Source: Eledone cirrhosa (taxonomy: Eukaryota). From it: a DNA stretch of 64,000 bases. The position numbers and the translations under genes were made by a program. How positions within the stretch are numbered: position 1 is the first letter of the stretch; each line of letters begins with the position of its first letter. The stretch covers positions 135,594,001 to 135,658,000 of the forward strand of contig OZ024741.1 of NCBI GenBank assembly GCA_964016885.1, written 5' to 3'. Shown piece after piece: positions 608-63,019 of this stretch. The notes under the pieces are model-generated. The model ran no database searches and was not told the origin of the DNA. It worked only from the letters and a program-made list of their open reading frames with translations.

Positions 608-3052
608 CACGGGGGTAGCCATTGGTACAATAATGGGCCCGAACTATGCCAACCTTTTTGTTGGCCATGTTGAGGCCAAATCTTTGCCCAGTACACCGGC
701 CCCACGCCCGAACTGTACGGTCGTTACATTGACGACTGTATCGGAGCCACGACCCTCACCCGAGAACAGCTCGATTCCTTTCTCTCCTTCTTCTGCTCCT
801 TCCACCCTTCCCTCCACTTCACCACCTCTATCTCAACCACCCACGTCCACTTCTTAGACATCTCCGTCGCCTTCGACCCCTCCCACCACTCCCTCGTCAC
901 CTCCGCCTTCTTCAAACCCACCGACTCCCACTCTTACCTCGACTTCACCTCTTCCCACCCCACCCACACTAAACACTCCATTCCCTACTTCCAACTTCTC
1001 AGGATCCGCCGCCTCGGTAGCCGAGATGCTGACTTCGAGTCCCAGGCCCTTTCCCTAGTCAGCCATTTCATCCGCAGAGGTTACCCCCCCCTCTCGTCCA
1101 CACCGCTCTCACCCGCGCCCGTGATGTCCACCGCTCCACCACCCTCACCGCACACCCACCCACCGTCTCCCCTTCCCCATCACCTACCACCCCTCCACCT
1201 TACCCCTCCACCGCACCATCCGCCGCCTCTTCCGACGGGATATTCGTCTCTGTGGTAGTTCCCCCATCGCCCGCCACTTTGGTGGCCCTGGACATTCCGC
1301 ACGCCATCTCACAGTCTGTGGCCTACTCCAATGCCACGGAACACCCGCCAATCGCCTTAGAGTCGAACAAAGAACTATCTTCATCTTACAGACCCACACT
1401 CCCCCCGGCCTGAACTCCCCACCCTTATTCCTTTAGCCTTCGACCGCCCCTCTCCCCCACACTTATCCCCCACTAACACCACTAACACACTCCTCCTTTT
1501 CACCGTCCACCCCACAGCTAACAATACTAACACCTCCACTCCACCCCTCATCCGACCACCCTTCCCCAACTAACATACTAACATCCTCCCTTCTTCTCCT
1601 CCTCCTCCTCCTTATCACACGCACACACACACCGGCACATATATACACGCACTCACACTAAACACACACCCTACTACCACCACTAACCCTCACCCCACAT
1701 CTTTCACCCCCACACCTCCATCCCACCACCCCGCAACTAACCTCACTAACACCCCCTGACCCCAAGCACACAAACACACGCACCCACTTACACCACCCAC
1801 CCCACACGCAACTAACATCACTAACACCCCCCAAAGACACGCACACGTACCCACACACCCTCGTACACCACCAACTCTACACACCCTACCACCACTAACC
1901 CCCACTCACACCTGCATTCAACCCTTCCCCACCTCCCGTATACTAACAGCCACTAACACCCATTCATCAAACTACACACACACCAGTACACCACACTCCC
2001 TCCATAGAACTACACACACCCTTCTCTCCCCGCTCCACCCATACCCTCGCTCCACACTCACTCATCCCACTAACACCTCTACTAATACACACACACACAC
2101 ACACACCCTCCTCACTCCAACTTTCACACCTACCCATCCTCGCCCCTTTACCATTCCACCGACTGCTGCTATGCCCTCTGACCACCTCCCAGCACAAACA
2201 GACACACAGCACTCCCACTGCTTGACCACTTCCTGTTGCGCGCGCACCCCACATCTCTCCTCTTCCGAACATCTCTTCATGGAATACTCGTATGTGGAAC
2301 TTGACCACCACAGAATCCACTAAACATCATAGGATTTTACCAACTTTTCAACCATCCTCTTACGGAATCACCTATATAACTCACCCACACACACACCCCA
2401 AAAAATTGTTTTCTCCACACGCCACCTACACCCACAACACGCTTAAACCCCACACACGTGCTTTCCACCACATATTTACACCCTCAGCCTCCTGATTCCT
2501 CTCCCCCCACCCCTCTATCCACACACGCAGAGACACTCCGACCTAACCCCCCCCCACACCTCTTCCTGAACATGCAACCCCGTTCTTCCCCCAACCCTTA
2601 CTTTCACATACACACACACACACACGTACACCTACACGCACACACACCACCTTCAGCCCTCCCCGCTCGGACACCCCGTCTCCCTCTCCCCACTCCACCC
2701 GCCACCACCCCTACACACCCCACACCCTTCCACCACCTGTTTTACTCCCCTTTTAATTTCAGTTTATTTTGATCATGCTTTTATATTTAATATTATTTCA
2801 TTCCTTGTATTTTGATCATGCTTTATTTTTATTTTTATTTTTAATTTCATTCGCACCATTTCTTTTCGCTATATGTCTCTCCACCACTCCCCTACACACC
2901 CTTTGAACTCTGTTCCCACACACTTCTCACCTGAGGAAGGGCTTATGCCCGAAACGTCGTTCCCCACCACCACTCCACTCTCCAGAGCGTGAAATTAATA
3001 AACATTCGTTGTACTGCCTCTCTGTTTTGTTCCTGTTCAAATTTTTCCATTA
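604..3052 (+). mobile_element. Neptune-type Penelope-like retroelement, 5'-truncated and decayed (copy A)
   Basis: Frameshifted RT C-terminal motifs: [55 protein letters not shown]. The GIY-YIG tail (PIARHF...EQRTIFIL...PPGLN) follows an internal deletion near 1238. A C/A-rich 3' UTR of about 1.6 kb ends in an HHR-like motif. Both ends abut (TA)n. Confidence 0.9.
2927..2961 (+). ncRNA. Minimal type I hammerhead-like motif in the Neptune 3' end
   Basis: CTGAGGA-AGGGC-TTAT-GCCC-GAAA-CG-TC; stem I is very short. The same motif is on the minus strand at about 6848-6882. Confidence 0.65.
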
Positions 3053-3204
3053 CATATATATATATATACATATATATATATATGTATGTATATATATATA
3101 GTTGGTGTGTGTGTGCATGCCTGTATACATATCTTTATATTTATTTATATTTTTGTGTATTCAAATAAGATGTATATACAAAAAACCACAACTCATTTTC
3201 TCGC

Positions 3205-4245: not shown

Positions 4246-4299
<54 letters not shown>

Positions 4300-4303
<4 letters not shown>

Positions 4304-5027
4304 GGAAAACATGAAACGAAATTTCATTTCTCACTCTTAGTACGGCTGTTACTTAAATATAAGTATTTATACGTACATACATATATGTATACAGACGTAC
4401 AATAGTATGTATATATATATACATACATGCACACATATATATATATATATATGTATGTATGGATTTACCGAACATTTATTATAATGCTCGGTTTGTTTGT
4501 AAACAAACATCCCGAATTAAGCCGTACAGTATTTAGCCCCCATCGTTGCCCTTTTGTTCAACACTGACAAAGGAACGATGTACTAGTTTCAAGCTTATTA
4601 GCTATCGTCAGCACCGTATACCTTCCTGCCAGATGATTGAACGTCTGAAAGTATTTATCGTTTATCGTTTTCGGTACGCCCGGCCGATTAACTCACTCGA
4701 TATGCAAATTAGGCTGCTCAGCCGTTAATATGCATAAGGAGAGTATATACTTTCAGACGTTCAATCATCTGGCAGGAAGGTATACGGTGCTGACGATAGC
4801 TAATAAGCTTGAAACTAGTACATCGTTCCTTTCTCAGTGTTGAACAAAAGGGCAAGGATGGTTGCTAAACATTGTACGGCTTAATTCGGGATGTTTGTTT
4901 ACAAACAAACCGAGCATTATAATAGATGTTCGGTAAATCCATACGTACATATATATATGTGTGCCTGTATGTATATATATACATACTACTGTACGTCTGT
5001 ATACATATATGTGTGTATGTATACATA

Positions 5028-5030
<3 letters not shown>
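4300..5030. mobile_element. Dispersed, diverged fold-back copy of the 472-bp HHR element
   Basis: Two inverted arms homologous to the 25481-31319 unit. HHR on + at about 4784-4827 (acggtg CTGACGA tagctaataagctt GAAA ctag TA catcgt) and on - at about 4575-4618. Flanked by (TA)n. Confidence 0.88.
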
Positions 5031-6184
<1,154 letters not shown>

Positions 6185-6698: not shown

Positions 6699-6756
6699 TA
6701 TATATATGTATGTATGTATATATTTGTACTTATATATATATATATATATATGTATA

Positions 6757-9731
6757 TAATGGAAAAATTTGAACAGGGACAAAACAGAGAGGCAGTACAA
6801 CGAATTTTTATTAATTTCACGCTCTGGAGTGTGGGGTGTTGGTGGGGGACGACGTTTCGGGCATAAGCCCTTCCTCAGGTGAGAAGTGTGTGGGAACAGA
6901 GTTCAAAGGGTGTGTAGGGGAGTGGTGGAGAAACATATAGCGAAAGGAAACGGTGCGAATGAAAAAATAAAAATAAAGATAAAAATAAAAATAAAGCATG
7001 ATCAAAATACAAGGAATGAAATAAATTTAAATATAAAAGCATGATCAAAATAAACTGAAATTAAAAGGGGGGTAAAACAGGTGGTGGAAGGGTGTGGGGT
7101 GTGTAGGGGCTGGGGGCGGGTGGAGTGGGGAGAGGGAGACGGGTGTCCGAGCGGGGAGAGCTGAAGGTGGTGTGTGTGTGTAGGTGTACGTGTGTGTGTG
7201 TGTATGTGAAAGTAAGGGTTGGGGGAAGAACGGGATTGCATGTTCAGGAAGAGGTGTGTGTGTGTGGGGCGGGGTCGGAGTGTCTGTGCGTGTGTGGATA
7301 GAGGGGTGGGGGAGAGGAATCAGGAGGCTGAGGGTGTAAATATGTGGTGGAAAGCACGTGTGTGTGGGGTTTAAGCGTGTTGTGGGTGTAGGTGGCGTGT
7401 GGAGAAAAAAATGTTTTTGAGGTGTGTGTGTGGGTGAGTTATATAGGTTATTACGTAAGAGGATGGTTGAAAAGTAGGTAAATTCCAAAGATGTTTCGTG
7501 GATTCTGTGTTGGTCAATTTCTGCGTGTGGGTATTCCATGAAGCGATTGGTCGGAAGAGGAGAGATGTGGGGTGCGCGCGCAACAGGAAGCGGTCAAGCA
7601 GTCGGAGTGCTGTGTGTCTGTTTGTGCTGGGAGGTGGTCAGAGGGCATAGCAGCAGTCGGTCGAATGGTAAAGGAGCGGGGATGGGTAGGTGTGAAAGCT
7701 GGAGTGAGGAGGGTGTGTGTGTGTGTATTAGTAGAGGTGTTAGTGGGATGAGTGAGTGTGGAGCGAGGGTGTGGGTGGAGCGGGGAGAGAAGGGTGTGTG
7801 TGGTTCTATGGAGGGAGTGTGGTGTACTGGTGTGTGTGTAGTTTGATGAAGAGGTGTTAGTGGGTGTTAGTATACGGGAGGTGGGGAGGGGTTGAATGCA
7901 GGTGTGAGTGGGAGTTAGTGGTGGTAGGGTGCGTAGAGTTGGTGGTGTACGAGGGTGTGTGGGTACGTGTGCGTGGGCTTTGGGGGGTGTTAGTGATGTT
8001 AGTTGCGTGTGGGGTGGGTGGTGTAAGTGGGTGCGTGTGTTCGTGTGCTTGGGGTTAGGAGTCTTAGTGAGGTTAGTTGCGGGGTGGTGAGATGGAGGTG
8101 TGGGGGTGAGAGATGTGGGGGTGAGGGTTAGTGGTGGTAGTAGGGTGTGTGTTTAGTGTGAGCGCGTGTATATATGTGCTGGTGGGTGTGTGCGTGTGAT
8201 AAGGAGGGGGGAGGAGGAGAAGAAGGGAGGGATGTTAGTATGTTAGTTGGGGAAGGGTGGTCAGATGAGGGGTGGAGTGGAGGTGTTAGTATTGTTAGTT
8301 GTGGGGTGGGCGGTGAAAAGGAGGGGTGTGTTAGTGGTGTAAGTGTGGGGGGAGGGGGGCGGTCGAAGGCTAAAGGAATAAGGGTGGGGAGTTCAGGCCG
8401 GGAGGAGTGTGGATCTGTAAGATGAAGATAGTTCGTTGTTCGACCGTAAGGCGATTGGCAGGTGTTCCGTGGCACTGGAGTAGGCCACAGATTGTGAGAT
8501 TGCGTGCGGAATGTCCAGGGCCACCAAAGTGGCGGGCGATGGGGGAACTACCCCCGAGACGAATATTCCGGAGGTGCTCCGTGAATCGGTCCGCCAGGCG
8601 ACGTCCCGTCTGTCTGACATAAGTCGGTAGACTAGGTTGGAGGAGGTGCAGCGGAAAGCAAGCCGGACAGAGAGCGAGTGGCCGTTGGGACCCTGGAAGG
8701 TGGTGGTGTTGGTGATGTGGGGACAGGTGTTGCAGCGGGGCCTAGAACAGGGAAAGGAACCGGGGGGGGCAGGGAGCTGTGGACGAGGAGGGTGCGGAGA
8801 TTGCGTGCGTGTTTGAAGGAGGGGAGTGGTGGGGTTGGGAAGATGTGGGAGGAGGAGGGGTCGGACTGGAGGCGTCGGAAGAGGCGGCGGTTGGTGCGGG
8901 TGGAGGGGTGGTAGGTGATGGGGAAGGGGAGACGGTGGGTGGGTGTGCGATGGCGTGGGGTGAGGGTGGTGGAGTGGGGGACAGCATGGGCGCGGGTGAG
9001 AGCGGTGTGGACGAGAGAGGGTGGTGGTGGTGGTGGTGGGGGGGGGGTAACCTCTGCGGATGAAATGGCTGACTAGGGAAAGGGCCTGGGACTCAAAGTC
9101 AGCATCTCGGCTATAGAGGCGGCGGATCCTGAGAAGTTGGGAGTAGGGAATGGAGTGTTTAGTGTGGGAAGAGGTGAAGTAGAGGTAAGAGTGGGAGTCG
9201 GTGGGTTTGAAGAAGGTGGAGGTGATGAGGGAGTGGTGGGAGGGGTCGAAGGCGACGGAGATGTCTAAGAAGTGGACGTGGGTGGTGGAGATAGAGGTGG
9301 TGAAGTGGAGGGAGGGGTGGAAGGAGCAGAAGAAGGAGAGAAAGGAGTCGAGCTGTTCTCGGGTGAGGGTCGTGGCTCCGATACAGTCGTCATGTAACGA
9401 CCGTACAGTTCGGGCGTGGGGCCGGTGTACTGGGCAAAGATTTGGCCTCAACATGGCCAACAAAAAGGTTGGCATAGTTCGGGCCCATTCTTTTACCTAT
9501 GGCTACCCCCGTGACCTGTTGGTAAAACTCACCCGAGAAGCAGAAACAATTCAGGATGAGGACCAGCTCGGCGAGGCGATGGAGGGTGGGGGTGGAGGGA
9601 ATGGGGGAGGGGCGAAGGTCGACGTAGTGTTTGAGGGCGCGTAGGCCGTCGGCGTGGGGGATGACGGTGTAGAGGGACTTGATGTCTAGGGTGAAGAGGA
9701 AGAACTGTGGGCCGGGTGGGTAGGTGAAGGA

Positions 9732-13639: not shown

Positions 13640-14601
<962 letters not shown>

Positions 14602-14844: not shown

Positions 14845-14873
<29 letters not shown>

Positions 14874-14875
<2 letters not shown>

Positions 14876-15530
14876 AATATAAGTCTGCATGTATGTATAC
14901 ATATATATATGCACGTATCGGTTTACCGAACATTTATTATAATGCTCGGTTTGTTTGTAAACAAACAAACAGCCCGAATTACGCCGTCCACGTCACCTTT
15001 TTGTTCAAAACTGACACAGGAACGATGTACTAGTTTCAAATTTATTAGCTATCGTCAGTATCGTAAACCTTCCTGCCAGATGGTTGAACATCTGAAAGTA
15101 TATACTTTCCTTATGCATATTAACCGCTGAGCAGCCTAATTTGCATATCGAGTGAGTTTAGTCGGCTGGGCTCACCGAAAACCATAAATGGAATAGAATG
15201 AAACGAAATTTCATTTCTCACTCTTAGTACGGCAGTTACTTAAATGTAAGTATTCCTGTGTCAGTGTTGAACAAAAAGGTGACGTGGTTGCCTAAACACT
15301 GTACAGCGTAATTCGGGCTGTTTGTTTGTTTACAAACAAACAAACCAAGCATTATAATAAATGTTCGGTAAACTGATACGTGCATATATATATGTGTGCA
15401 TGTAAGTATATATATACATACTACTGTACGTCTGTATACATATATGTATGTACGTATACATACATGCATACTTACATTTAAGTAACTGCCGTACTAAGAG
15501 TGATAAATGAAATTTCGTTTCATTCTATTC
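14874..15530. mobile_element. Second dispersed fold-back copy of the 472-bp HHR element
   Basis: Inverted arms with an HHR on - at about 15021-15064. The left arm reads through the head-to-tail unit junction at about 15180-15195. Confidence 0.85.
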
Positions 15531-15553
15531 TCTCTCTCTCTCTATATATATAT

Positions 15554-15604
<51 letters not shown>

Positions 15605-15737
15605 GTAGGAGGTGAGTTTTATTGTAGTACAATAAAACAATGCAGATATCGGATAAGAAGCACTCTACAGTTTGTAGGACTGGAGTATACATAATATAAG
15701 ATCAAAAGATGGTTAAAGGAGTTCCATTTATTTTATT

Positions 15738-17426
15738 ATGCGCATTTCTGAGGTGATTGGCTGGTTCAACAAATTGGATAATAAAAACAAACTAAAATTT
15801 ATTCAATTTGATATTGCCAGCTACTATTCCTCCATTTCGCCTTCACTTCTCAGTAATGCTCTATCTTTCGCACTTAAATATTCTGACATCACCACAGATG
15901 AACTTCACATCATCCTCACCGCACGTAAAACCATCCTAGAGTTCAACAACGAATATTGGACCAGAGCCGATACCTCTAACAACTTCGACATCACAATGGG
16001 AGCATCCGATTCATCCCAATTGACTGATTTAATTGGTATCTTCATTTTGAACTCTTTGAGTCGGAAAATTCCTCAACTTCGCGGTGGAATTTATCGTGAC
16101 GATGGACTCTTTACTATCCTAAATTGCAATATAGTTAACCTTAATATTATTAAGAACAATATACGTAATCTCTTTAACCAACATAACCTAAAAATTGAAT
16201 TTGATAATAGTATCAAACTAGCTAATTTCTTGGATGTATCTCTTAATCTTGACACTGGCCTATATTACCCTTACCATAAAAACAATGAGAACCTAAATTA
16301 TGTTAACTTTAAATCTAACCATCCTACCAATATCAATAATGCTATAGTTAGTAATATTGGAAAAAGAATATCTAACATATCCTCTAATAAAAACATCTTT
16401 GATGCTAACGCCAATTACTATAATAACGCACTTTCTAAAGCCGGCTATCCAGATAAAATCAAATATAGTAAAGAAACAAATTCTAGAAAAACTTACAGTA
16501 GAATAATTAACCATGATCATTCCAATAATTTTAATAAAAGACCTAGATACAAAAACATAATCTGGTATAATGCTCCTTTCTCCATCTCTATTAATAACAA
16601 TATTCCTAAATTATTTTTTAGTGCCTTAAATAAATGCTTCCCTCCCTCACATATCTATAGTAAAATATTTAACAAACACACCATCAAATTTTCTTATTCT
16701 ACATCCTCCAATATTTCCAACATCATCTCTAAACACAACAATAAAATACTAAATACTAAATCTCTTCCTTCCAACATTGAATTTCATAATAACAGTAATA
16801 GTACTCCTGACGTCATTGTAAACCCTAGGCTAACTTCTGTAAACCCAAATACAACGTCAAACACAACTTCGCTAAATGTTCATAATCCAACTCTAAATCA
16901 AGAAACTATTATTCCTATTATTCCTATCGCAAACAACTTCTCCAATCCAATTCCTTCTATAGATAACATTAGGTCACTCATTAATAATCTCTCTAATTGC
17001 AACTGCCGCATTAAAAATAAATGTCCTCTCAACAACCATTGTCTCGATAAAAACTTAATTTATCAATGTAAAATTATAACTAGCACCAATTCCTTCACCT
17101 ATTTTGGCTCCACTTCCACCTCTTTTAAAGCTCGTCTCTATAATCATCATTCATCTTTCAAATCCAAACTTAAAAGAACCAACACTGCTCTCTCAGAACT
17201 CATATGGTCCTTAAAAGACAAAAACATTAAATATACCATCTTTTGGAAGAAGGTTTCTTCTGCATCCTCATACTTGAACAGCTCTCTATCTAAAATCTGT
17301 AATCTCTGCCTAAATGAAAAATTTACCATTATCTCTAATCTAGATTCTATAATAAATAGACGTACAGATTTGTTTTCTATCTGCCTGCATAAATTCCATA
17401 GGACTTTTCACAAAGTATACAGTTAA
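15738..17426 (+). CDS. PLE reverse transcriptase plus GIY-YIG endonuclease (N-terminally truncated, 562 aa open)
   Basis: RT motifs FIQFDIASYYSSI, FDITMGASDSSQL, IYRDDGL, NFLDVSL. Linker CNCRIKNKCPLNNHC. Endonuclease NLIY..C...YFGST..FKARLYNH, then CNLCLNEK and C-x-H. The ATG comes from the inverted terminal segment, so it is not the native start. Confidence 0.92.
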   Translation: MRISEVIGWFNKLDNKNKLKFIQFDIASYYSSISPSLLSNALSFALKYSDITTDELHIILTARKTILEFNNEYWTRADTSNNFDITMGASDSSQLTDLIGIFILNSLSRKIPQLRGGIYRDDGLFTILNCNIVNLNIIKNNIRNLFNQHNLKIEFDNSIKLANFLDVSLNLDTGLYYPYHKNNENLNYVNFKSNHPTNINNAIVSNIGKRISNISSNKNIFDANANYYNNALSKAGYPDKIKYSKETNSRKTYSRIINHDHSNNFNKRPRYKNIIWYNAPFSISINNNIPKLFFSALNKCFPPSHIYSKIFNKHTIKFSYSTSSNISNIISKHNNKILNTKSLPSNIEFHNNSNSTPDVIVNPRLTSVNPNTTSNTTSLNVHNPTLNQETIIPIIPIANNFSNPIPSIDNIRSLINNLSNCNCRIKNKCPLNNHCLDKNLIYQCKIITSTNSFTYFGSTSTSFKARLYNHHSSFKSKLKRTNTALSELIWSLKDKNIKYTIFWKKVSSASSYLNSSLSKICNLCLNEKFTIISNLDSIINRRTDLFSICLHKFHRTFHKVYS

Positions 17427-18452
17427 TATTCAATTCTTTATCAATTTAGAATCTTTTCTCAAAGGCACATATACATACACCTCTTTAAAATATACCCATC
17501 TTCCTACCTTACTTTAAAGGGCATTATACACTATACTTGTTTACTCATTACCCTCATTCTATCTTCACCTTGTAAAATCCTTCATAACATATACATTTGT
17601 TTTTTTGACGTTAGAATATTCATCCGCAATCATTATTATTTTTTCTCTCTATCATAAATCTTTTTAATCTCAATTTCATCCTTAATTTATTATTTTTTTC
17701 TCCCCATCAACGAACTCATTCTTAATACATATTAACTCTTTATTCGCATATATTATCAATTCCTTCAATATACAAACTTTAACTTCACATTACTTTTCTC
17801 AAATCCTTCTACACACAAACCTTAATAATTTTTCTCTTCGTTAATTTTGAAATTGCCACAATACTTATCAACATACACTTTTTTTGACGTTAGAATATTC
17901 ATCCACAATTATTATTTTTTTCTCTCTATCTTCATACATAAATTCCCTTCGTTTATTTTCAAATTCCTTTAATTTATACATTATCTTCCAACGGTTTTCA
18001 ACCTCTCTATGTAAAACAATATATCTTTTTCTCAGTTATAAAAACTATCTCTTTCTCTCTATCACCCATCTCTCCCTCTCCACCTTCACTCTCATCTCCT
18101 CCCCCTTTTTTCATCCTTTCCACCCCCCCCTCCCTAAATAAAATATTTTTTCCTCGCACATATCCTCCCTTCGTTAATTTTCAAATTTTTTAAATTTATA
18201 CATTATCTTCCAACGGTTTTCAACCTCTCTATGTAAAACAATATATCTCCTCTCAGTTATAAAAACTATCTCTTTCTCTCTATCACCCATCTCTCCCTCT
18301 CATCTCCTCCCCTTTTTCATCCTTTCCACCCCCCCCTCTCTAAATAAAATATTTTTCCCAATATCACACATCAATCTAAAACCACTTTTCATATGTTGAT
18401 TTAAAACTGCACTATCCACAAGTGTTTTTTAGCCTTCATATCATGTTCTCCT

Positions 18453-18518
18453 GTTTTATCTGATGAAAACACAAATGTTATTGCATGATGATGTTTGTTT
18501 TTGAAATGCGCATAATAA
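18453..18518 (+). ncRNA. Minimal type I hammerhead ribozyme of the Naiad-type family
   Basis: ttttat CTGATGA aaacacaaat...gtttgttttt GAAA tgcgca TA ataaaa; palindromic stem III. Also at about 53632-53698 (+), 49703-49768 (-) and 12917-12982 (-). Confidence 0.85.
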
Positions 18519-18552
18519 AATACATGGAACTCCTTTAACCATCTTTTGATCT

Positions 18553-18583
<31 letters not shown>

Positions 18584-25393: not shown

Positions 25394-25484
<91 letters not shown>

Positions 25485-25726
25485 AGTATGCATGTATACG
25501 TACATACATATATGTATACAGACGTACAGTAGCATGCACATATATATATATATATACATATATACATACATATGCATACAGGTACACATACATATATGCA
25601 CGTATCAGTTTAGCGGCGCTTATTATAACGTCGCTTTGTTCGTTTGTAAACAAACTGAACAGCCTGAATTTATGCCATACGGTGTTAAGGCAACCACGTC
25701 ACCTTTTTGTTCAACACTGACACAGG

Positions 25727-25771
25727 AACGATGTACTAGTTTCAAGCTTGTTAGCTATCATCAGCACCGTT
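25727..25771 (-). ncRNA. Type I hammerhead ribozyme, first of 5 minus-strand copies (period 472)
   Basis: Reverse complement of the 28134-28178 motif. Copies start at 25727, 26199, 26671, 27143 and 27615. Confidence 0.9.
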
Positions 25772-28133
25772 TACCCATCTGCCAGATAGTTGAACGTTCG
25801 AAAGTATATACTTTCCTTATGAAAATTAACGGCTGAGCAGCCTAATTTGCATATTGAGTGAGTTAAATCGGTCAGGCATACCGAAAGCGATAAATTGAAA
25901 CAAAATGAAAACGAAATTTCATTTCTCACTCTTAGTATGGCACTTACTTAAATGTAAGTATGCATGTATACGTACATACATATATGTATACAGACGTACA
26001 GTAGCATGCACATATATATATATATATACATATATACATACATATGCATACAGGTACACATACATATATGCACGTATCAGTTTAGCGGCGCTTATTATAA
26101 CGTCGCTTTGTTCGTTTGTAAACAAACTGAACAGCCTGAATTTATGCCATACGGTGTTAAGGCAACCACGTCACCTTTTTGTTCAACACTGACACAGGAA
26201 CGATGTACTAGTTTCAAGCTTGTTAGCTATCATCAGCACCGTTTACCCATCTGCCAGATAGTTGAACGTTCGAAAGTATATACTTTCCTTATGAAAATTA
26301 ACGGCTGAGCAGCCTAATTTGCATATTGAGTGAGTTAAATCGGTCAGGCATACCGAAAGCGATAAATTGAAACAAAATGAAAACGAAATTTCATTTCTCA
26401 CTCTTAGTATGGCACTTACTTAAATGTAAGTATGCATGTATACGTACATACATATATGTATACAGACGTACAGTAGCATGCACATATATATATATATATA
26501 CATATATACATACATATGCATACAGGTACACATACATATATGCACGTATCAGTTTAGCGGCGCTTATTATAACGTCGCTTTGTTCGTTTGTAAACAAACT
26601 GAACAGCCTGAATTTATGCCATACGGTGTTAAGGCAACCACGTCACCTTTTTGTTCAACACTGACACAGGAACGATGTACTAGTTTCAAGCTTGTTAGCT
26701 ATCATCAGCACCGTTTACCCATCTGCCAGATAGTTGAACGTTCGAAAGTATATACTTTCCTTATGAAAATTAACGGCTGAGCAGCCTAATTTGCATATTG
26801 AGTGAGTTAAATCGGTCAGGCATACCGAAAGCGATAAATTGAAACAAAATGAAAACGAAATTTCATTTCTCACTCTTAGTATGGCATTTACTTAAATGTA
26901 AGTATGCATGTATACGTACATACATATATGTATACAGACGTACAGTAGCATGCACATATATATATATATATACATATATACATACATATGCATACAGGTA
27001 CACATACATATATGCACGTATCAGTTTAGCGGCGCTTATTATAACGTCGCTTTGTTCGTTTGTAAACAAACTGAACAGCCTGAATTTATGCCATACGGTG
27101 TTAAGGCAACCACGTCACCTTTTTGTTCAACACTGACACAGGAACGATGTACTAGTTTCAAGCTTGTTAGCTATCATCAGCACCGTTTACCCATCTGCCA
27201 GATAGTTGAACGTTCGAAAGTATATACTTTCCTTATGAAAATTAACGGCTGAGCAGCCTAATTTGCATATTGAGTGAGTTAAATCGGTCAGGCATACCGA
27301 AAGCGATAAATTGAAACAAAATGAAAACGAAATTTCATTTCTCACTCTTAGTATGGCACTTACTTAAATGTAAGTATGCATGTATACGTACATACATATA
27401 TGTATACAGACGTACAGTAGCATGCACATATATATATATATATACATATATACATACATATGCATACAGGTACACATACATATATGCACGTATCAGTTTA
27501 GCGGCGCTTATTATAACGTCGCTTTGTTCGTTTGTAAACAAACTGAACAGCCTGAATTTATGCCATACGGTGTTAAGGCAACCACGTCACCTTTTTGTTC
27601 AACACTGACACAGGAACGATGTACTAGTTTCAAGCTTGTTAGCTATCATCAGCACCGTTTACCCATCTGCCAGATAGTTGAACGTTCGAAAGTATATACT
27701 TTCCTTATGAAAATTAACGGCTGAGCAGCCTAATTTGCATATTGAGTGAGTTAAATCGGTCAGGCATACCGAAAGCGGTTTGTTTACAAACGAACAAAGC
27801 GACGTTATAATAAGCGCCGCTAAACTGATACGTGCATATATGTATGTGTACCTGTATGCATATGTATGTATATATGTATATATATATATATATGTGCATG
27901 CTACTGTACGTCTGTATACATATATGTATGTACGTATACATGCATACTTACATTTAAGTAAGTGCCATACTAAGAGTGAGAAATGAAATTTCGTTTTCAT
28001 TTTGTTTCAATTTATCGCTTTCGGTATGCCTGACCGATTTAACTCACTCAATATGCAAATTAGGCTGCTCAGCCGTTAATTTTCATAAGGAAAGTATATA
28101 CTTTCGAACGTTCAACTATCTGGCAGATGGGTA

Positions 28134-28178
28134 AACGGTGCTGATGATAGCTAACAAGCTTGAAACTAGTACATCGTT
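28134..28178 (+). ncRNA. Type I hammerhead ribozyme, first of 7 plus-strand copies (period 472)
   Basis: Stem I aacggtg/catcgtt (one G-U); CTGATGA at 28141; stem II agct-aaca-agct; GAAA; palindromic ACTAGT; predicted cleavage after GUA at 28171. Cores at 28141, 28613, 29085, 29557, 30029, 30501 and 30973. Confidence 0.9.
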
Positions 28179-31100
28179 CCTGTGTCAGTGTTGAACAAAA
28201 AGGTGACGTGGTTGCCTTAACACCGTATGGCATAAATTCAGGCTGTTCAGTTTGTTTACAAACGAACAAAGCGACGTTATAATAAGCGCCGCTAAACTGA
28301 TACGTGCATATATGTATGTGTACCTGTATGCATATGTATGTATATATGTATATATATATATATATGTGCATGCTACTGTACGTCTGTATACATATATGTA
28401 TGTACGTATACATGCATACTTACATTTAAGTAAGTGCCATACTAAGAGTGAGAAATGAAATTTCGTTTTCATTTTGTTTCAATTTATCGCTTTCGGTATG
28501 CCTGACCGATTTAACTCACTCAATATGCAAATTAGGCTGCTCAGCCGTTAATTTTCATAAGGAAAGTATATACTTTCGAACGTTCAACTATCTGGCAGAT
28601 GGGTAAACGGTGCTGATGATAGCTAACAAGCTTGAAACTAGTACATCGTTCCTGTGTCAGTGTTGAACAAAAAGGTGACGTGGTTGCCTTAACACCGTAT
28701 GGCATAAATTCAGGCTGTTCAGTTTGTTTACAAACGAACAAAGCGACGTTATAATAAGCGCCGCTAAACTGATACGTGCATATATGTATGTGTACCTGTA
28801 TGCATATGTATGTATATATGTATATATATATATATATGTGCATGCTACTGTACGTCTGTATACATATATGTATGTACGTATACATGCATACTTACATTTA
28901 AGTAAGTGCCATACTAAGAGTGAGAAATGAAATTTCGTTTTCATTTTGTTTCAATTTATCGCTTTCGGTATGCCTGACCGATTTAACTCACTCAATATGC
29001 AAATTAGGCTGCTCAGCCGTTAATTTTCATAAGGAAAGTATATACTTTCGAACGTTCAACTATCTGGCAGATGGGTAAACGGTGCTGATGATAGCTAACA
29101 AGCTTGAAACTAGTACATCGTTCCTGTGTCAGTGTTGAACAAAAAGGTGACGTGGTTGCCTTAACACCGTATGGCATAAATTCAGGCTGTTCAGTTTGTT
29201 TACAAACGAACAAAGCGACGTTATAATAAGCGCCGCTAAACTGATACGTGCATATATGTATGTGTACCTGTATGCATATGTATGTATATATGTATATATA
29301 TATATATATGTGCATGCTACTGTACGTCTGTATACATATATGTATGTACGTATACATGCATACTTACATTTAAGTAAGTGCCATACTAAGAGTGAGAAAT
29401 GAAATTTCGTTTTCATTTTGTTTCAATTTATCGCTTTCGGTATGCCTGACCGATTTAACTCACTCAATATGCAAATTAGGCTGCTCAGCCGTTAATTTTC
29501 ATAAGGAAAGTATATACTTTCGAACGTTCAACTATCTGGCAGATGGGTAAACGGTGCTGATGATAGCTAACAAGCTTGAAACTAGTACATCGTTCCTGTG
29601 TCAGTGTTGAACAAAAAGGTGACGTGGTTGCCTTAACACCGTATGGCATAAATTCAGGCTGTTCAGTTTGTTTACAAACGAACAAAGCGACGTTATAATA
29701 AGCGCCGCTAAACTGATACGTGCATATATGTATGTGTACCTGTATGCATATGTATGTATATATGTATATATATATATATATGTGCATGCTACTGTACGTC
29801 TGTATACATATATGTATGTACGTATACATGCATACTTACATTTAAGTAAGTGCCATACTAAGAGTGAGAAATGAAATTTCGTTTTCATTTTGTTTCAATT
29901 TATCGCTTTCGGTATGCCTGACCGATTTAACTCACTCAATATGCAAATTAGGCTGCTCAGCCGTTAATTTTCATAAGGAAAGTATATACTTTCGAACGTT
30001 CAACTATCTGGCAGATGGGTAAACGGTGCTGATGATAGCTAACAAGCTTGAAACTAGTACATCGTTCCTGTGTCAGTGTTGAACAAAAAGGTGACGTGGT
30101 TGCCTTAACACCGTATGGCATAAATTCAGGCTGTTCAGTTTGTTTACAAACGAACAAAGCGACGTTATAATAAGCGCCGCTAAACTGATACGTGCATATA
30201 TGTATGTGTACCTGTATGCATATGTATGTATATATGTATATATATATATATATGTGCATGCTACTGTACGTCTGTATACATATATGTATGTACGTATACA
30301 TGCATACTTACATTTAAGTAAGTGCCATACTAAGAGTGAGAAATGAAATTTCGTTTTCATTTTGTTTCAATTTATCGCTTTCGGTATGCCTGACCGATTT
30401 AACTCACTCAATATGCAAATTAGGCTGCTCAGCCGTTAATTTTCATAAGGAAAGTATATACTTTCGAACGTTCAACTATCTGGCAGATGGGTAAACGGTG
30501 CTGATGATAGCTAACAAGCTTGAAACTAGTACATCGTTCCTGTGTCAGTGTTGAACAAAAAGGTGACGTGGTTGCCTTAACACCGTATGGCATAAATTCA
30601 GGCTGTTCAGTTTGTTTACAAACGAACAAAGCGACGTTATAATAAGCGCCGCTAAACTGATACGTGCATATATGTATGTGTACCTGTATGCATATGTATG
30701 TATATATGTATATATATATATATATGTGCATGCTACTGTACGTCTGTATACATATATGTATGTACGTATACATGCATACTTACATTTAAGTAAGTGCCAT
30801 ACTAAGAGTGAGAAATGAAATTTCGTTTTCATTTTGTTTCAATTTATCGCTTTCGGTATGCCTGACCGATTTAACTCACTCAATATGCAAATTAGGCTGC
30901 TCAGCCGTTAATTTTCATAAGGAAAGTATATACTTTCGAACGTTCAACTATCTGGCAGATGGGTAAACGGTGCTGATGATAGCTAACAAGCTTGAAACTA
31001 GTACATCGTTCCTGTGTCAGTGTTGAACAAAAAGGTGACGTGGTTGCCTTAACACCGTATGGCATAAATTCAGGCTGTTCAGTTTGTTTACAAACGAACA

Positions 31101-31313
31101 AAGCGACGTTATAATAAGCGCCGCTAAACTGATACGTGCATATATGTATGTGTACCTGTATGCATATGTATGTATATATGTATATATATATATATATGTG
31201 CATGCTACTGTACGTCTGTATACATATATGTATGTACGTATACATGCATACTTACATTTAAGTAAGTGCCATACTAAGAGTGAGAAATGAAATTTCGTTT
31301 TCATTTTGTTTCA

Positions 31314-31381
<68 letters not shown>

Positions 31382-43052: not shown

Positions 43053-43239
43053 AAGGAATGTCGAAACATGTAACTAAAGTCCTAGTCATTTAGAACATTT
43101 AGGGTACATAATTGTTATTAGTGTCAAAGGCATCATGTGCTTGAACGAACGCAATTACAGGCAGCACTGGTTGGAAGTGTAATAGGTATAAGTAAAAAGC
43201 ACGAGCAAAAAAATCACAAGCTAAAAAACAGGCAAAAAA

Positions 43240-44950
43240 TGTCTTAATTAGGTAGTTCCTATGTAATGGGCATGTCTTGTTAGGCCTACAATTACAATTG
43301 TTTTGGTAACTAGTATACTGGTTAAGGGGGTATGCATTTGAGTGGTTGTTTCTGTTTCTACTTCTAGTATTATGATTATGGTGAGTACTATTATTATTGG
43401 TATTAATAGTGTGATTTGCTGTATGGTCTTGTATTGTGTTATTGTTCAGGTTATTTCCATGCTGGACATTATTACTTTGGGGTAATTTGAAGTAGTTTCT
43501 AATATGTCTCTTGTTCGTGCTGGCTATATGGTCTGCTATTTTAGGTGTGGTGGAGTAGAATATTTTAATTGTGTTTTTGTTAAATAGGTTGTGGTATTTA
43601 TGGTTAGTTGGGAAGTTTTTGTCTAGAGTAGAGAAGAAAGCTTTGGATATGTTTGTTGAAACATTTAAGTTGAACGGAGGGTTAAGAAGTGTGCTACTTC
43701 TTCTTCTATTCTTCTTATGGTTGTTATTCATACTACTGTTTAGTGTGGTGTTAGGTTCCTTCTTATCTATATTTTTTCTGTGGTGTTTCTTAGGATTGTT
43801 GCTGTGGTGTGATTTAACTTTTTTATGTTGCCCTTTGTATAGCAGTCAGGATTTTCAATACTATGATAATATTTACTTTTATTCATGGCCATGTTGTGTG
43901 AAATTATATTAGGTTGTCTATGGGTGGTTGACGATTTAGGTTTAAATTTAATTTATCTCTATGACCGGAACGGGCTCAGGCTTCATTATAGTATTGGGAG
44001 TTACGATTAAATGTATTCTCGTTGTAAGAAAGGCTAGAGATTCTATTAGATACCCCTTTAATGATTGAGGTCAGTACAGATTTAGGGTGGGTAGAGTTGG
44101 TATCAACATAGAAAAGTTTTTCATTAGGTTTATGATAAGGTGTGTATTCTTTAGAGTCTAAGTAGAGAGTGACGTCAAGGAAGTTAACATATTTGTTGTT
44201 TTTATCTAAAGTGATACCTAAGTTATAGTTTTTAAATATTTTATGTAATTGTTTTCTAGTTCTTTCTATATTGACCTTTTTATAGTCTAAGAGGAAAAGC
44301 GCGTCGTCTCGGTAGAGGCCACCGTTGAGGTAAGGTAGGTTCTTGTGTATTTCGTTTAAGAGAAATAGACCGACTAAGTCGGTTACCTGTGCAGAGTCAC
44401 TAGATCCCATGGTGATATGGAAGTTGTTGGGTGTATTCCTGCGGGTCCATAGTTGGTCTTCAAATTTAATTATTGTTTTCCTGGCCGCAAGGAATATATC
44501 TACCTGGGATCTAGTGAGTTCACTATTGTTCATGGCCATTATTAATGCTTTATTTAGGAGGATAGGTAAAATAGAGGTGTAGTAGGAGTTTATATCAAAT
44601 TGGATGAATTTCTTCTACTTATTTCATTAATACCATTAAACCATTCGATTACTTCACTAGTGTTTCCCCAGAGGTTAAAATGAATTTTTTGTTTAATTTG
44701 GGGGATTATTTTATCTAAAATGTTTTTACTAATAATACCAATGTCGGATCTGGATGGGCAAATAAGTCTAATTGAGGGGTTAGTATTGAAGTCATCCTTA
44801 TGGTCTTTCACAGAGAATCGTGGGGGATTAGGGGTGTACGGCTGAGTATATCTCTCTAGTCCTATTTTACATATTAAACTACGGGCTTCAATATTTATGT
44901 CATCCAGGTTTTTATGAGATGTTTTTTTGTAGTTTCTATAAAGTTCTTTA
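43240..44950 (-). pseudogene. Diverged Naiad-type PLE RT, fragmented
   Basis: KDHKDDFNTNPSIRLICPSRSDIG, FHITMGSSDSAQVTDLVG, LYRDDAL, NFLDVTL, NPPFN, CNCRPNKTCPL. Contains frameshifts and breaks off before the GIY-YIG core. Confidence 0.9.
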
Positions 44951-49569: not shown

Positions 49570-52500
49570 AATGTAGGAGGTGAGTTTTATTGTAGTACAA
49601 TAAAGCAATGCAGATATCGGATAAGAAGCACTCTACAGTTTGTAGGACTGGAGTATACATAATATATAAGATCAAAAGATGGTTAAAGGAGTTCCATGTA
49701 TTTTATTATGCGCATTTCAAAAACAAACATCATCATGCAATAATATTTGTGTTTTCATCAGATAAAACAGGAGGACATGATATGAAGGCTAAAAAACACT
49801 TGTGGATAGTGCAGTTTTAAATCAACATATGAAAAGTAGTTTTAGATTGATGTGTGATATTGGGAAAAATATTTTATTTAGAGAGGGGGGGGGGTGTGAA
49901 AAAATGGGAGGAGATGAGAGTGAAGGTGGAGAGGGTGATAGAGAGAAAGAGATAGTTTTTATAACTGAGAGAAGATATATTGTTTTACATAGAGAGGTTG
50001 AAAACCGTTGGAAGATAATGTATAAATTAAAAGAATTTGAAAATTAACCAAGGGAAAAATATGTACGAGGAAAAAATATTTTATTTAGAGAGGGGGGTGG
50101 AAAGGATGAAAGAAGGGGAGGAGATGAGAGTGAAGGTGGAGAGGGAGAGATGGGTGATAGAGATAAAGAGATAGTTTTTATAACTGAGAAAAGATATATT
50201 GTTTTACATAGAGAGGTTGAAAACCGTTGGAAGATAATGTATAAATTAAAAGAATTTGAAAATTAACGAAGGGAAAAATATGTACGAGGAAAGAGAGGGA
50301 GTTGATATGTATTGAGATTAAAAAGTTTGAAGATAGAGAGAAAAAATAATAATTGCGGATGAATATTCTAACGTCAAAAAAGGTGTATGTTTATAAGTAT
50401 TATGGCAATTTCAAAATTAACGAAGAGAAAAAAAATTATTAAGGTTTGTGTATGAAGGATTTGAGAAAAAATAATGTGAAGTTAAGGTTTGTATATTGAA
50501 GGAATTGATAATATGTGCGAAGAAAGAGTTAATATGTATTAAAAAATTATTAAGGTTTGTGTATTGAAGGATTTGAGAAAAATAATGTGAAGTTAAGGTT
50601 TGTATATTGAGGGAATTGATAATATGTGCGAAGAAAGAGTTAATATGTATTAAGAATGAGTTAGATGATGGGGAGAAAAAAAAAAAATTAAGGATGAATA
50701 TTCTAGCGTCAAAAGAATGTGTACGAAGAAGGAGAGGGAGTTAATGTATTGAGATTAAAAAGTTTGATGATGGAGAGAAAAAAATAATAATAATTGCGGA
50801 TGAATATTCTAACGTCAAAAAAATTTGTGTGTGATTTTACAAGTATTATGGAAATTTGGAAATTAACGAAGAGAAAAATTATTAAGGTTTGTGTATTGAA
50901 GGATTTGGGAAAAATAATGTGAAGTTAAGGTTTGTATATTGAAGGAATTGATAATATGTGCGAAGAAAGAGTTAATATGTATTAAAAAATTATTAATGTT
51001 TGTGTATTGAAGGATTTGAGAAAAATAATGTGAAGTTAAGGTTTGTATATTGAGGGAATTGATAATATGTGCGAAGAAAGAGTTAATATGTATTAAGAAT
51101 GAGTTAGATGATGGGGAGAAAAAAATAATAAATTAAGGATGAATAAACTAACGTCAAAAAAACAAATGTATATGTTATGAAGGATTTTACAAGGTGAAGA
51201 TAGAATGAGGGTAATGAGTAAACAAGTATTATAGAGTGTATAGTACCCTTTGAAGTAAGGTAGGAAGATGGGTATATTTTAAAGAGGTGTATGTATATGT
51301 GCCTTTGAGAAAAGATTCTAAATTGATAAAGAATTGAATATTAGCTGTATACTTTGTGAAAAGTCCTATGGAATTTATGCAAGCAGATAGAAAACAAATC
51401 TGTACGTCTATTTATTATAGAATCTAGATTAGAGATAATGGTAAATTTTTCATTTAGGCAGAGATTACAGATTTTAGATAGAGAGCTGTTCATGTATGAG
51501 GACGCAGAAGAAACCTTCTTCCAAAAGATGGTATATTTAATGTTTTTGTCTTTCAAGGACCATATGAGTTCTGAGAGAGCCGTGTTGGTTCTTTTAAGTT
51601 TGTATTTAAAAGATGAATGATGATTATAGAGACGAGCTTTAAAAGAGGTGGAAGTGGAGCCAAAATAGGTGAAGGAATTGGTGCTAGTTATAACTTTACA
51701 TTCATAAATTAAGTTTTTATCAAGACAATGGTTGTTGAGAGGACATTTATTTTTAATGCGGCAGTTGCAATTAGAGAGATTATTAATGAGTGACCTAGTG
51801 TTATCTATAGAAGGAATTGGATTGGAGAAGTTGTTTGCGATAGGAATAATAGGAATAATAGTTTCTTGATTTAGAGTTGGATTATGAACATTTAGCGAAG
51901 TTGTGTTTGACGTTGTATTTGGGTTTACAGAAGTTAGCCTAGGGTTTACAATGACGTCGGGAGTACTATTACTGTTATTATGAAATTCAATGTTGGAAGG
52001 AAGAGATTTAGTATTTAGTATTTTATTGTTGTGTTTAGAGATAATGTTGGAAATATTGGAGGATGTAGAATAAGAAAATTGTATGGTGTGTTTGTTAAAT
52101 ATTTTACTATAGATATGTGAGGGAGGGAAGCATTTATTTAAGGCACTAAAAAATAATTTAGGAATATTGTTATTAATAGAGATGGAGAAAGGAGCATTAT
52201 ACCAGATTATGTTTTTGTATCTAGGTCTTTTATTAAAGTTATTGGAATGATCATGATTAATTATTCTACTGTAAGTTTTTCTAGAATTTGTTTCTTTACT
52301 ATATTTGATTTTATCAGGATAACCGGCTTTAGAAAGTGCGTTATTATAGTAATTGGCGTTAGCATCAAAGATGTTTTTATTAGAAGATATGTTAGATATT
52401 CTTTTTCCAATATTACTAACTATAGCATTCTTGATATTGGTATGATATTGGTAATTTAGGTTCTCATTGTTTTTATGGTAAGGGTAATATAGGCCAGTGT

Positions 52501-53732
52501 CAAGATTAAGAGATACATCCAAGAAATTAGCTAGTTTGATACTATTATCAAATTCAATTTTTAGGTTATGTTGATTAAAGAGATTACGTATATTGTTCTT
52601 AATAATATTAAGGTTAAGTATATTGCAATTTAAGATAGTAAAGAGTCCATCGTCACGATAAATTCCACCACGAAGTTGAAGAATTTTCCGACTCAAAGAG
52701 TTCAAAATAAAGATACCAATTAAATCAGTCAATTGCGATGAATCGGATGCTCCCATTGTGATGTCGAAGATGTTAGAGGTATCGGCTCTGGTCCAATATT
52801 CGTTGTTGAACTCTAGGATGGTTTTACGTGCGGTGAGGTTGATGTGAAGTTCATCTGTGGTGATGTCAGAATATTTAAGTGCGAAAGATAGAGCATTATT
52901 GAGAAGTGAAGGCGAAATGGAAGAATAGTAGCTGGCAATATCAAATTGAATAAATTTTAGTTTGTTTTTATTATCCAATTTGTTGAACCAGCCAATCACT
53001 TCAGAAGTACCAAACCATAAATTTAGGTTCAAAATTCATCCGCAATTATTATTTTTTCTCTCTATCTTCAAACTTTTTAATCTCAATACATATCAACTCC
53101 CTCTCTTTCCTCGTACATATTTTTCCCTTCGTTAATTTTCAAATTCTTTTAATTTATACATTATCTTCCAACGGTTTTCAACCTCTCTATGTAAAACAAT
53201 ATATCTTTTCTCAGTTATAAAAACTATCTCTTTCTCTCTATCACCCATCTCTCCCTCTCCACCTTCACTCTCATCTCCTCGCCTTCTTTCATCCTTTCCA
53301 CCCCCCCCCCTCTCTAAATAAAATATTTTTTCCTCGTACATATTTTTCCCTTCGTTAATTTTCAAATTCTTTTAATGTATACATTATCTTCCAACGGTTT
53401 TCAACCTCTCTATGTAAAACAATATATCTTCTCTCAGTTATGAAACTATCTCTTTCTCTCTATCACCCTCTCCACCTTCACTCTCATCTCCTCCCCTTAT
53501 TTCATCCCCCCCCCTCTCTAAATAAAATATTTTTCCCAATATCACACATCAATCTAAAACTACTTTTCATATGTTGATTTAAAACTGCACTATCCACAAG
53601 TGTTTTTTAGCCTTCATATCATGTCCTCCTGTTTTATCTGATGAAAACACAAATATTATTGCATGATGATGTTTGTTTTTGAAATGCGCATAATAAAATA
53701 CATGGAACTCCTTTAACCATCTTTTGATCTTA

Positions 53733-62262: not shown

Positions 62263-62268
<6 letters not shown>

Positions 62269-62832
62269 GTGAAAATAAAGCGAAACTAAAATGAAATTGA
62301 AAATAAAACAAAGTGAAGTGAAACTAATGTGGAAATGAAAGTAAACAAAACGGGAAATTGAAAGTGAATCTAAAATGTGAAAGTGAACGTGAAACAACAG
62401 TGAAAGTGAAACTAAATTCAAGGTGAAATTAAAGTAAAACTAGCGTGAAAGTAACGTGAAAGTGAAACTAAAGTGATAGGGAAACTAAATTAAAATATAT
62501 AATTATCTTCACAATCATCATCATCGACAACATTATTATTGCCTCAACTACTATTATCAATAACACCACTACTAAATGTGAAACTAAAGTGAAAGTGAAA
62601 CTAAATTGAAACCAGAATGAAAGGGATACTAAAATGAAATTAAAGTGAAACTGAAGTGAATGTGAAACTAAAGTGTAAGTAAAACTAAAGTGAAAGTGAA
62701 ACTAAAGTTAAACCAGAATAAATGTGAAACAAAAGAGAAAGTGAAATTAAAGTGAAACTGAAGTGAATATGAAACTAAAGTGTAGGTGAAACTAAACTGA
62801 AACTAAATTGAATGCGAAATTAAAGTGAAATC
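62263..62832. repeat. Degenerate minisatellite (gtgaaactaaa / gtgaaa)
   Basis: Many imperfect 6-11-bp units. Confidence 0.8.
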
Positions 62833-63019
62833 TAATCAACGATAGCATTGAAAAAGGAAAAAAAACAATAATATTCAAATCCTCCGAGAAACAAAACCCT
62901 AAAATTAAAAATTAGTAGTACCATACACATATACCCCCACCCCCCCAACGCAGATATCTATAAACACATACACCTAAACCTACATATACTACAAAAAGAC
63001 CCCAAAAATAAAAAAACGT

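Follow-up and report, generated by a model that had tools for sequence, protein, structure and literature searches.

Metazoan non-LTR retrozymes carry a type I hammerhead in each unit and occur as tandems ranging from the monomer to dozens of units (PMC7229834; 10.64898/2026.07.22.740005). As described in the same reports, they have low GC, no coding capacity, a self-paired unit, and thousands of copies, and PLEs are co-resident with them. PLEs have been named as candidate movers of animal retrozymes, with a circle as the template (PMC7229834), and a preprint favours local amplification for tandem arrays and calls the mechanism open (10.64898/2026.07.22.740005). PLEs with an inverted pLTR are arranged head-to-head, carry a tail at one of their ends, insert into AT-rich or (TA)n DNA, terminate downstream of a hammerhead, and have junctions at self-complementary sites (PMC8557442; PMC3846280; PMC11167929). 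The presence of the tail at a single end marks PLE insertion (PMC8557442; PMC3846280). The anole PLE protein cleaves AT-rich DNA on both strands and extends both; the two internal sites at which it starts delimit the tail, and its start site in vitro was the same on the two strands (PMC11167929).

Here, we analyzed a window of 64,000 nt from contig OZ024741.1 of Eledone cirrhosa, which contains a hammerhead repeat with a 472-nt unit. The repeat shares the listed sequence features of retrozymes and the listed insertion marks of inverted-pLTR PLEs. Its unit is slightly longer than retrozymes of 150-450 bp (PMC7229834) and falls inside the range of 51-972 bp (10.64898/2026.07.22.740005). The hammerhead has a U-U at the base of stem II, like axolotl HHR_Amex2, and a short palindromic stem III, like HHR_Amex1 (PMC7229834). 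Unlike PLEs, the repeat has no RT or endonuclease frame, is itself the entire element, and forms arms of up to many units; its tail is 60 nt, compared to 30-40 nt in published PLEs and 87 nt in a neighbouring PLE. In frogs, 24 of 57 retrozyme families match known elements (10.64898/2026.07.22.740005), whereas we found no parent pLTR for the 472-bp family. Head-to-head arms, (TA)n targeting, and the rule described below, by which each insertion ends at two fixed sites, A and B, were not found in the accessible parts of the retrozyme literature; the words 'inverted' and 'microsatellite' are absent from the accessible text of PMC7229834. For the A/B rule, the search covered literature beyond whose reach most subscription papers lay.

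Results

A decayed, inverted copy and two further insertions in the window

The original prediction held that 14875-15530 is a diverged copy that preserves the unit-to-unit join of the 472-bp unit, and this was confirmed. The copy is approximately 80% identical to the array unit (80% over 421 columns) and reads through the join. The join 38-mer lies at 15175-15212 on the minus strand (boundary 15185/15186) and represents site A read through internally. The array version of this 38-mer starts at 25881, 26353, 26825, and 27297 and, on the opposite strand, at seven places from 27985. The copy is an inversion inside a TA repeat, with two arms pointing apart and with B as the left and A as the right outer end. 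Its B arm (14875..15253, minus strand), whose outer end is the fixed end B in the TA repeat, crosses the hammerhead and the A join and then site B again, thus covering just over one full unit; it has internal deletions. The A arm (15253..15530, plus strand) starts, at its 5' end, 5 nt past the predicted hammerhead cut; its 3' end lies ~5 nt before the usual position of site A and is followed by (CT)n(TA)n. The arms overlap by 1 nt at the inversion point (15253). On the left, the (TA)n target spans 14846..14874; on the right, the (CT)n(TA)n target (15531..15602) is common to the neighbouring PLE insertion.

The hammerhead of this copy (15019..15069, minus strand) is of type I, with CUGACGA at 15058-15052, GAAA, and GUA, and its predicted cut falls between 15028 and 15027. 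Changes affect stem I at its closing pair and stem II at two positions, and judging from its letters the motif is likely inactive. Position 15059 is T in this copy and C in the sequence runs X5 and X6. An octamer-like motif, ATGCAAAT (15139..15146, minus strand), is conserved in the family and was found in two sister families. Its role as a promoter element would be a guess; an snRNA-type promoter has a precedent in the newt.

Two other insertions show the same two-armed layout. The young array consists of a B arm (25477..27777, minus strand, 4.9 units) and an A arm (27778..31319, plus strand, 7.5 units). The head-to-head insertion at 4298..5035 has an A arm at 4298-4657 (minus strand) and a B arm at 4661-5035 (plus strand), and merely touches the join. 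It is the third of the three insertions in 27 kb from which an abundant family had been proposed, a proposal upheld by 17,638 core matches genome-wide. The copy at 14875-15530 is an old, decayed, and ordinary member of a very abundant, protein-free hammerhead repeat.

The unit and its hammerhead

The unit has 472 nt and a GC content of 36%. The longest ATG frame in the unit dimer encodes 114 aa, and no frame of 150 aa was found in the array. The predicted fold of the monomer RNA reached −158.7 kcal/mol (z −7.65), to which an internal TA-rich hairpin contributes part. The arm maps showed no terminal direct repeats other than the unit itself.

In the orientation of the right arm of the array, each unit reads AACGGUG-CUGAUGA-U-AGCU-AACA-AGCU-U-GAA-ACUAGUA-CAUCGUU, a type I hammerhead. 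An intact example lies at 28128..28184 (plus strand), with the predicted cut after 28171, a U-U at the stem II base, and a palindromic ACUAGU stem III with a 2-nt loop. The core, three stems, and GUA site of a type I hammerhead were all found in the unit and are damaged in the 14875 copy. Among 58 aligned motifs, which were selected by the core, the core letters are invariant, and 90.4% of the stem cells are paired, compared to 28-44% in slid controls. Six of 15 pairs were altered on both sides in these motifs, in counts that are inflated by shared ancestry. An older subfamily has one stem I pair switched from G-U or A-U to U-G, and a sister family has stems I and II rewritten. On this comparison, the unit carries a predicted type I hammerhead with covarying stems. 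Because its stem III is palindromic, the hammerhead would probably be cut as a dimer; in amphibian retrozymes, a short palindromic stem III goes with dimer cleavage (PMC7229834). A narrow Rfam search returned a weak match to Hammerhead_HH9 (E 0.043; 18.5 bits versus the family threshold of 52), and the isolated motif folded no better than shuffles (z −1.43, −0.84, and +0.38). An Rfam search over 3500-32000 was set aside, its 150 listed of 308 matches being chance microRNA-type matches on TA hairpins; the hammerhead came up in the narrow search alone.

Further hammerhead repeats were observed in the window and at the fetched loci. A second repeat of 310 nt occurs in tandem and inverted (L069:6300-8001; L116:4380-5650). 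Its longer end has the TTCCAATTT motif, as does site A of the 472 family, and in L116 it is inserted in the internal TA tract of that family. The sister family with rewritten stems has a unit of ~430 nt (L096:4440-4893; L018:1-940), an identical palindromic stem III, and two ends of its own. A distant cousin family combines octamer-like motifs with a hammerhead (L112:5800-6126; L061:1790-2335), and three more hammerhead families show a short and a long end in head-to-head pairs (L066:4300-5450; L084:450-900; L105:4900-5700). In the window, a small palindromic cassette in a TA repeat (14180-14420) has the hammerhead-type motif CTGATGAGGACGTAC and belongs to another family.

Genomic abundance and read-through

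In the genome of 3.0 billion bases, the 17,638 core matches are those of a 21-mer spanning the hammerhead cut, and a 42-mer of the youngest subfamily matched 5,946 units. The motif just 5' of the join had 23,056 matches, of which 11,492 (49.8%) read across the join; 17,442 of the 19,251 matches (90.6%) to the motif just 3' of the hammerhead cut reached back across the cut, and the read-through counts for both join and cut include inner array units. Reversed control patterns gave 0 matches genome-wide, compared to 17,638, 23,056, and 11,492, and the join read-through is therefore not due to chance. The 14875 copy thus belongs to a non-coding family of hammerhead repeats of 420-500 nt, with well over ten thousand genomic units.

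We fetched 60 loci from the matches of the cut 21-mer and 35 from those of the join motif. A sample of 73 insertions was formed by the join-motif carriers among the matches listed on contig C1 (101 matches). Of these sampled insertions, 42 crossed the join, nine of them twice or more; the cut was spanned in 56, and 49 were two-armed. The fraction of copies crossing the junction, which had been proposed for tabulation, therefore amounts to 11,492/23,056 among genomic matches and 42/73 among sampled insertions. Very long arrays also occur, such as one that has at least 39 units and terminates at site B (C2:150346000-150364440; L158 and L156).

A cluster of the unit extends over ~30 kb at C3:12290000-12323000. 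The sequence run X4, aligned to 27985-28760, gave one contig of 470 nt that is 99% like the youngest subfamily and closes on itself with a period of 466; older copies are absent from this run, and a tandem array would likewise assemble into a self-closing contig. A C at unit position 3, seen in single units of other arrays, was rejected as a selection effect of the first query.

Fixed ends A and B, the join, and the cut

The original prediction had regarded the join as the unit-to-unit junction of a tandem or circular template. As claimed, the join is common and dispersed; however, the junction of a circle would be the predicted cut, and the join corresponds to the fixed end A. Site A is 314 nt past the previous predicted cut and 158 nt upstream of the next, and site B is 254 nt after the predicted cut, such that A and B are ~60 nt apart. 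The join is a preferred insertion end and, we infer, the start of reverse transcription. The 5' ends did not pile up at the cut: nine of 122 fell in that 20-nt bin, compared to 2-13 in the others. Copies that span the cut could not arise from a linear monomer cut at both ends and would therefore derive from a circle or an uncut multimer. Read-through of the hammerhead cut would be a better indication than read-through of the join that the template was circular or multimeric.

Outer ends were typed by strand-specific landmarks. Among 119 groups, 45 insertions had both ends callable, including three from outside the C1 lists; 44 of them were A/B and one was B/B (p ~1e-12). The lone B/B call (L095), which on inspection runs on to an A end, was kept in the count. 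Of 20 fresh loci of the youngest subfamily, both ends could be called in 13, every one of them A/B; the remaining loci comprised four single-armed, one cut by the fetched range, and two unclear. The first end-typing by HMM, applied to 59 two-armed insertions, gave 39 A/B, 1 A/A, 2 B/B, and 17 other; the ends that it placed inside the TA tract were mostly B ends beyond a long tract. A regex end-typing (44 AB, 41 AA, and 5 BB of 90) and its TA-flank count were discarded, as the hairpin at the A end is matched on either strand. When read by eye, 26 of the 26 ends of 13 young two-armed insertions enter TA-type repeats. Both insertion ends thus sit in TA repeats, where a target-site duplication would be illegible.

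Fold-back of the cDNA was rejected as a general source of the inversions, as neither arm is nested in 10 of 38 A/B insertions or in the 14875 copy. In L1 twin priming, both strands of the target prime cDNA on one RNA, which leads to inversion; the position of the second start varies, and there is hardly any overlap between the arms. In contrast, the present repeat has both starts fixed and overlapping arms, and either arm can be the longer. In L124, L134, and L141, near 3010-3030, one inversion junction recurs where the unit is self-complementary.

Variants within and between arms

Private variants, absent from the other 27 young insertions, were present in all units of both arms in seven of 28. 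One of the seven is the window array (25477-31319), in which a T>C variant occurs in all 12 covering units and is fixed in only this one of the 28 (1/28). The patterns of the TA tract are uniform inside most arrays and differ between arrays; uniform private tracts were observed in the window array (13/13 tracts), L173 (9/9), L175 (6/6), and L160 (8/8). Across 43 insertions, the median divergence was 3.5% from arm to arm, compared to 12.3% to other loci, and 24 of the 43 passed a strict test of arm closeness. In several older insertions, the arms differ from each other at least as much as they do from other loci, for some of which short-arm misalignment is possible.

Unit variants in the young insertions were singletons in 71 cases and partly shared in five. 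Partly shared variants occur in L169, in three neighbouring units of six, and in the 39-unit stretch L158+L156, where one variant repeats 10 units apart. In L168 and L171, unit differences are in register on both arms. All 11 insertion-fixed variants are transitions, compared to 31 of 71 singletons (p 0.0005), and A>G accounts for five of the 11 fixed and seven of the 71 singleton variants (p 0.008), with T>C accounting for three of the 11. The all-transition spectrum of fixed variants suggests a separate source of change, for example RNA-level error. A-to-I editing would be a possible source, although these counts do not establish a strand bias, with T>C (3/11) standing beside A>G (5/11).

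That private variants are fixed on both arms points to a single RNA template for each insertion. L168 and L171 point to multimeric templates, since a monomer circle does not explain unit differences that are in register on both arms. In at least some insertions, therefore, the template was multimeric, the arms underwent conversion, or the array expanded at a later time.

The neighbouring coding PLE and the search for a partner

A coding PLE outside the repeat (15603..18560, plus strand) served as a comparator. It is 5'-truncated and has an open frame at 15717-17426 (569 aa), its own hammerhead near 18453-18522, an inverted long-tail end at 15603-15745, and a short end at 18560. Its assignment to the Hydra clade was made by motifs alone (a CxCX5C linker, and CxxC and CxH around E and N), and no Pfam or PDB match was found for its protein. 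A pattern search with its 3' end gave 8,000 genomic matches, where a DNA search had returned none. Among 30 fetched loci plus the window, we found 12 head-to-head pairs of this family, and all 12 consist of one end with the 87-nt tail and one untailed end. Since this coding PLE follows the same rule of one tailed and one untailed end, and since the marks agree with those published for PLEs, the repeat bears the footprint of a PLE enzyme. Neither the 87-nt tail nor the hammerhead of this PLE resembles the 472-bp unit.

Other elements in the window include another head-to-head copy of the 15717 family together with frames of a related PLE family, within the 49600-53730 and 43099-44614 regions, and a 9-kb inverted pair of an RT-bearing element (674-3100 and 6709-9644) with YIDD-type and endonuclease-like frames. 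A degenerate tandem tract of 11/17/28-nt GTGAAACTAAA repeats lies at 62264-62852.

A coding-PLE 3' end, which the original prediction had set as the competing source of most copies, was present in 0 of the 73 sampled insertions, and in none of the 73 did the repeat flank a frame with RT and GIY-YIG, as would define an autonomous PLE. Of 103 fetched stretches, 25 contain PLE frames, and an arrangement of frame, 3' UTR, and unit was found in none of the 103. Those nearby frames were rejected as partners, as they are neighbours in shared TA tracts. The 57 single-arm 5' ends had no upstream extension in common, and the PLE ends inspected, from a few PLE families, yielded no autonomous PLE whose terminal repeat resembles the unit. 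The unit splits a PLE frame in L083. At L102:4254 and L112:3535, the unit is directly fused to a broken frame of the 15717 PLE family, the family involved in both unit-PLE chimeras found; these fit a nested insertion with deletion, or template switching.

Discussion

The reading that we hold with high confidence is that this family is likely a non-LTR retrozyme, whose RNA a PLE enzyme would copy into (TA)n targets. The original prediction had proposed that the tandem arrangement is a property of the mobile template and not of a local satellite, and the thousands of dispersed sites, fixed ends, and shared private variants support it. Unlike a local satellite, the family occupies thousands of sites, has fixed ends, and has mostly singleton unit variants; signs of stepwise expansion are present in L169 and L158+L156. 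In the mechanism that we propose, the transcript would be cut by its hammerhead, probably as a dimer, and then either ligated into a circle or left multimeric. A PLE protein would cut both strands of a TA repeat, and the two 3' ends would prime on a single RNA molecule, one at A and its counterpart at B, 60 nt away. From there, each reverse transcriptase would travel round the template for a variable length, and the two cDNA ends would be joined at short self-complementary sites.

The same element and enzyme could also have worked mostly on a linear uncut multimer, with the hammerhead and circles playing no part in copying, which we regard as possible and distinctly less probable than a copying route that includes them. 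The unit-specific variants of L168 and L171, in register on both arms, agree with such a template, and so do published data: hammerhead mutants of the anole PLE still insert and uncut RNA was the main in vitro substrate (PMC11167929), and eight of nine frog retrozyme dimers were uncleaved in vitro (10.64898/2026.07.22.740005). However, the private variants and TA tracts that are uniform across most young arrays need a bottleneck of one unit somewhere, and compensating changes keep the hammerhead stems. Alternatively, a PLE enzyme might insert only monomers, from which arrays then grow locally by unequal crossover, as proposed for vertebrate retrozymes (10.64898/2026.07.22.740005). The very long arrays (at least 39 units at C2:150.35 Mb, with a variant repeated 10 units apart) and the variant in three neighbouring units of six in L169 would be expected from such growth, and some later local expansion may have occurred in very long arrays. 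As the general origin of arrays, however, local growth is very improbable: copies shorter than a dimer, such as 14875-15530, already read through the join, which 42 of 73 insertions cross and only nine cross twice or more; multimeric arms with uniform units occur on both sides of a single inversion; arrays stop exactly at A and B; and singleton unit variants outnumber partly shared ones by 71 to 5.

We further considered that the unit is the pLTR of an autonomous PLE, in which case the copies would be partial tandems and truncated 3' ends of that element. Every insertion mark of the repeat is indeed a PLE mark, PLE frames lie a few kb away in 25 of 103 stretches, L102 and L112 join the unit directly to a frame of the neighbouring PLE family, and our sample would miss a master copy that makes up less than ~1% of copies. 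Nevertheless, none of the 73 insertions runs on into a frame plus 3' UTR, the 57 single-arm 5' ends lack a common upstream extension, half of the A-proximal matches enter the unit's own start, and nested insertion with deletion or template switching accounts for the two chimeras, making this origin very improbable.

Returning to the preferred reading, a retrozyme copied from RNA by a PLE enzyme, the 11 of 11 transitions among fixed variants and the A/B ends can be taken one step further: each insertion may be the fossil of one circle-templated RNA copied by a paired PLE enzyme, to which we give an even chance. At the DNA break, one active site would always be placed at A and the other always at B, and each would roll round the ribozyme-made circle for up to dozens of turns, with the insertion-fixed variants recording RNA-level errors or editing of that molecule. 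The way in which animal retrozymes move has so far been a proposal; this family adds countable evidence from A/B ends that parallel those of a coding PLE in its own genome, read-through of the cut, and one template per insertion, and it supplies a small RNA with two mapped start sites. If the paired-enzyme copying of a circle is correct, the family would document, directly in the genome, that PLEs drive the rolling-circle insertion of retrozymes, and would reveal a strict strand-to-start-site rule in PLE integration.
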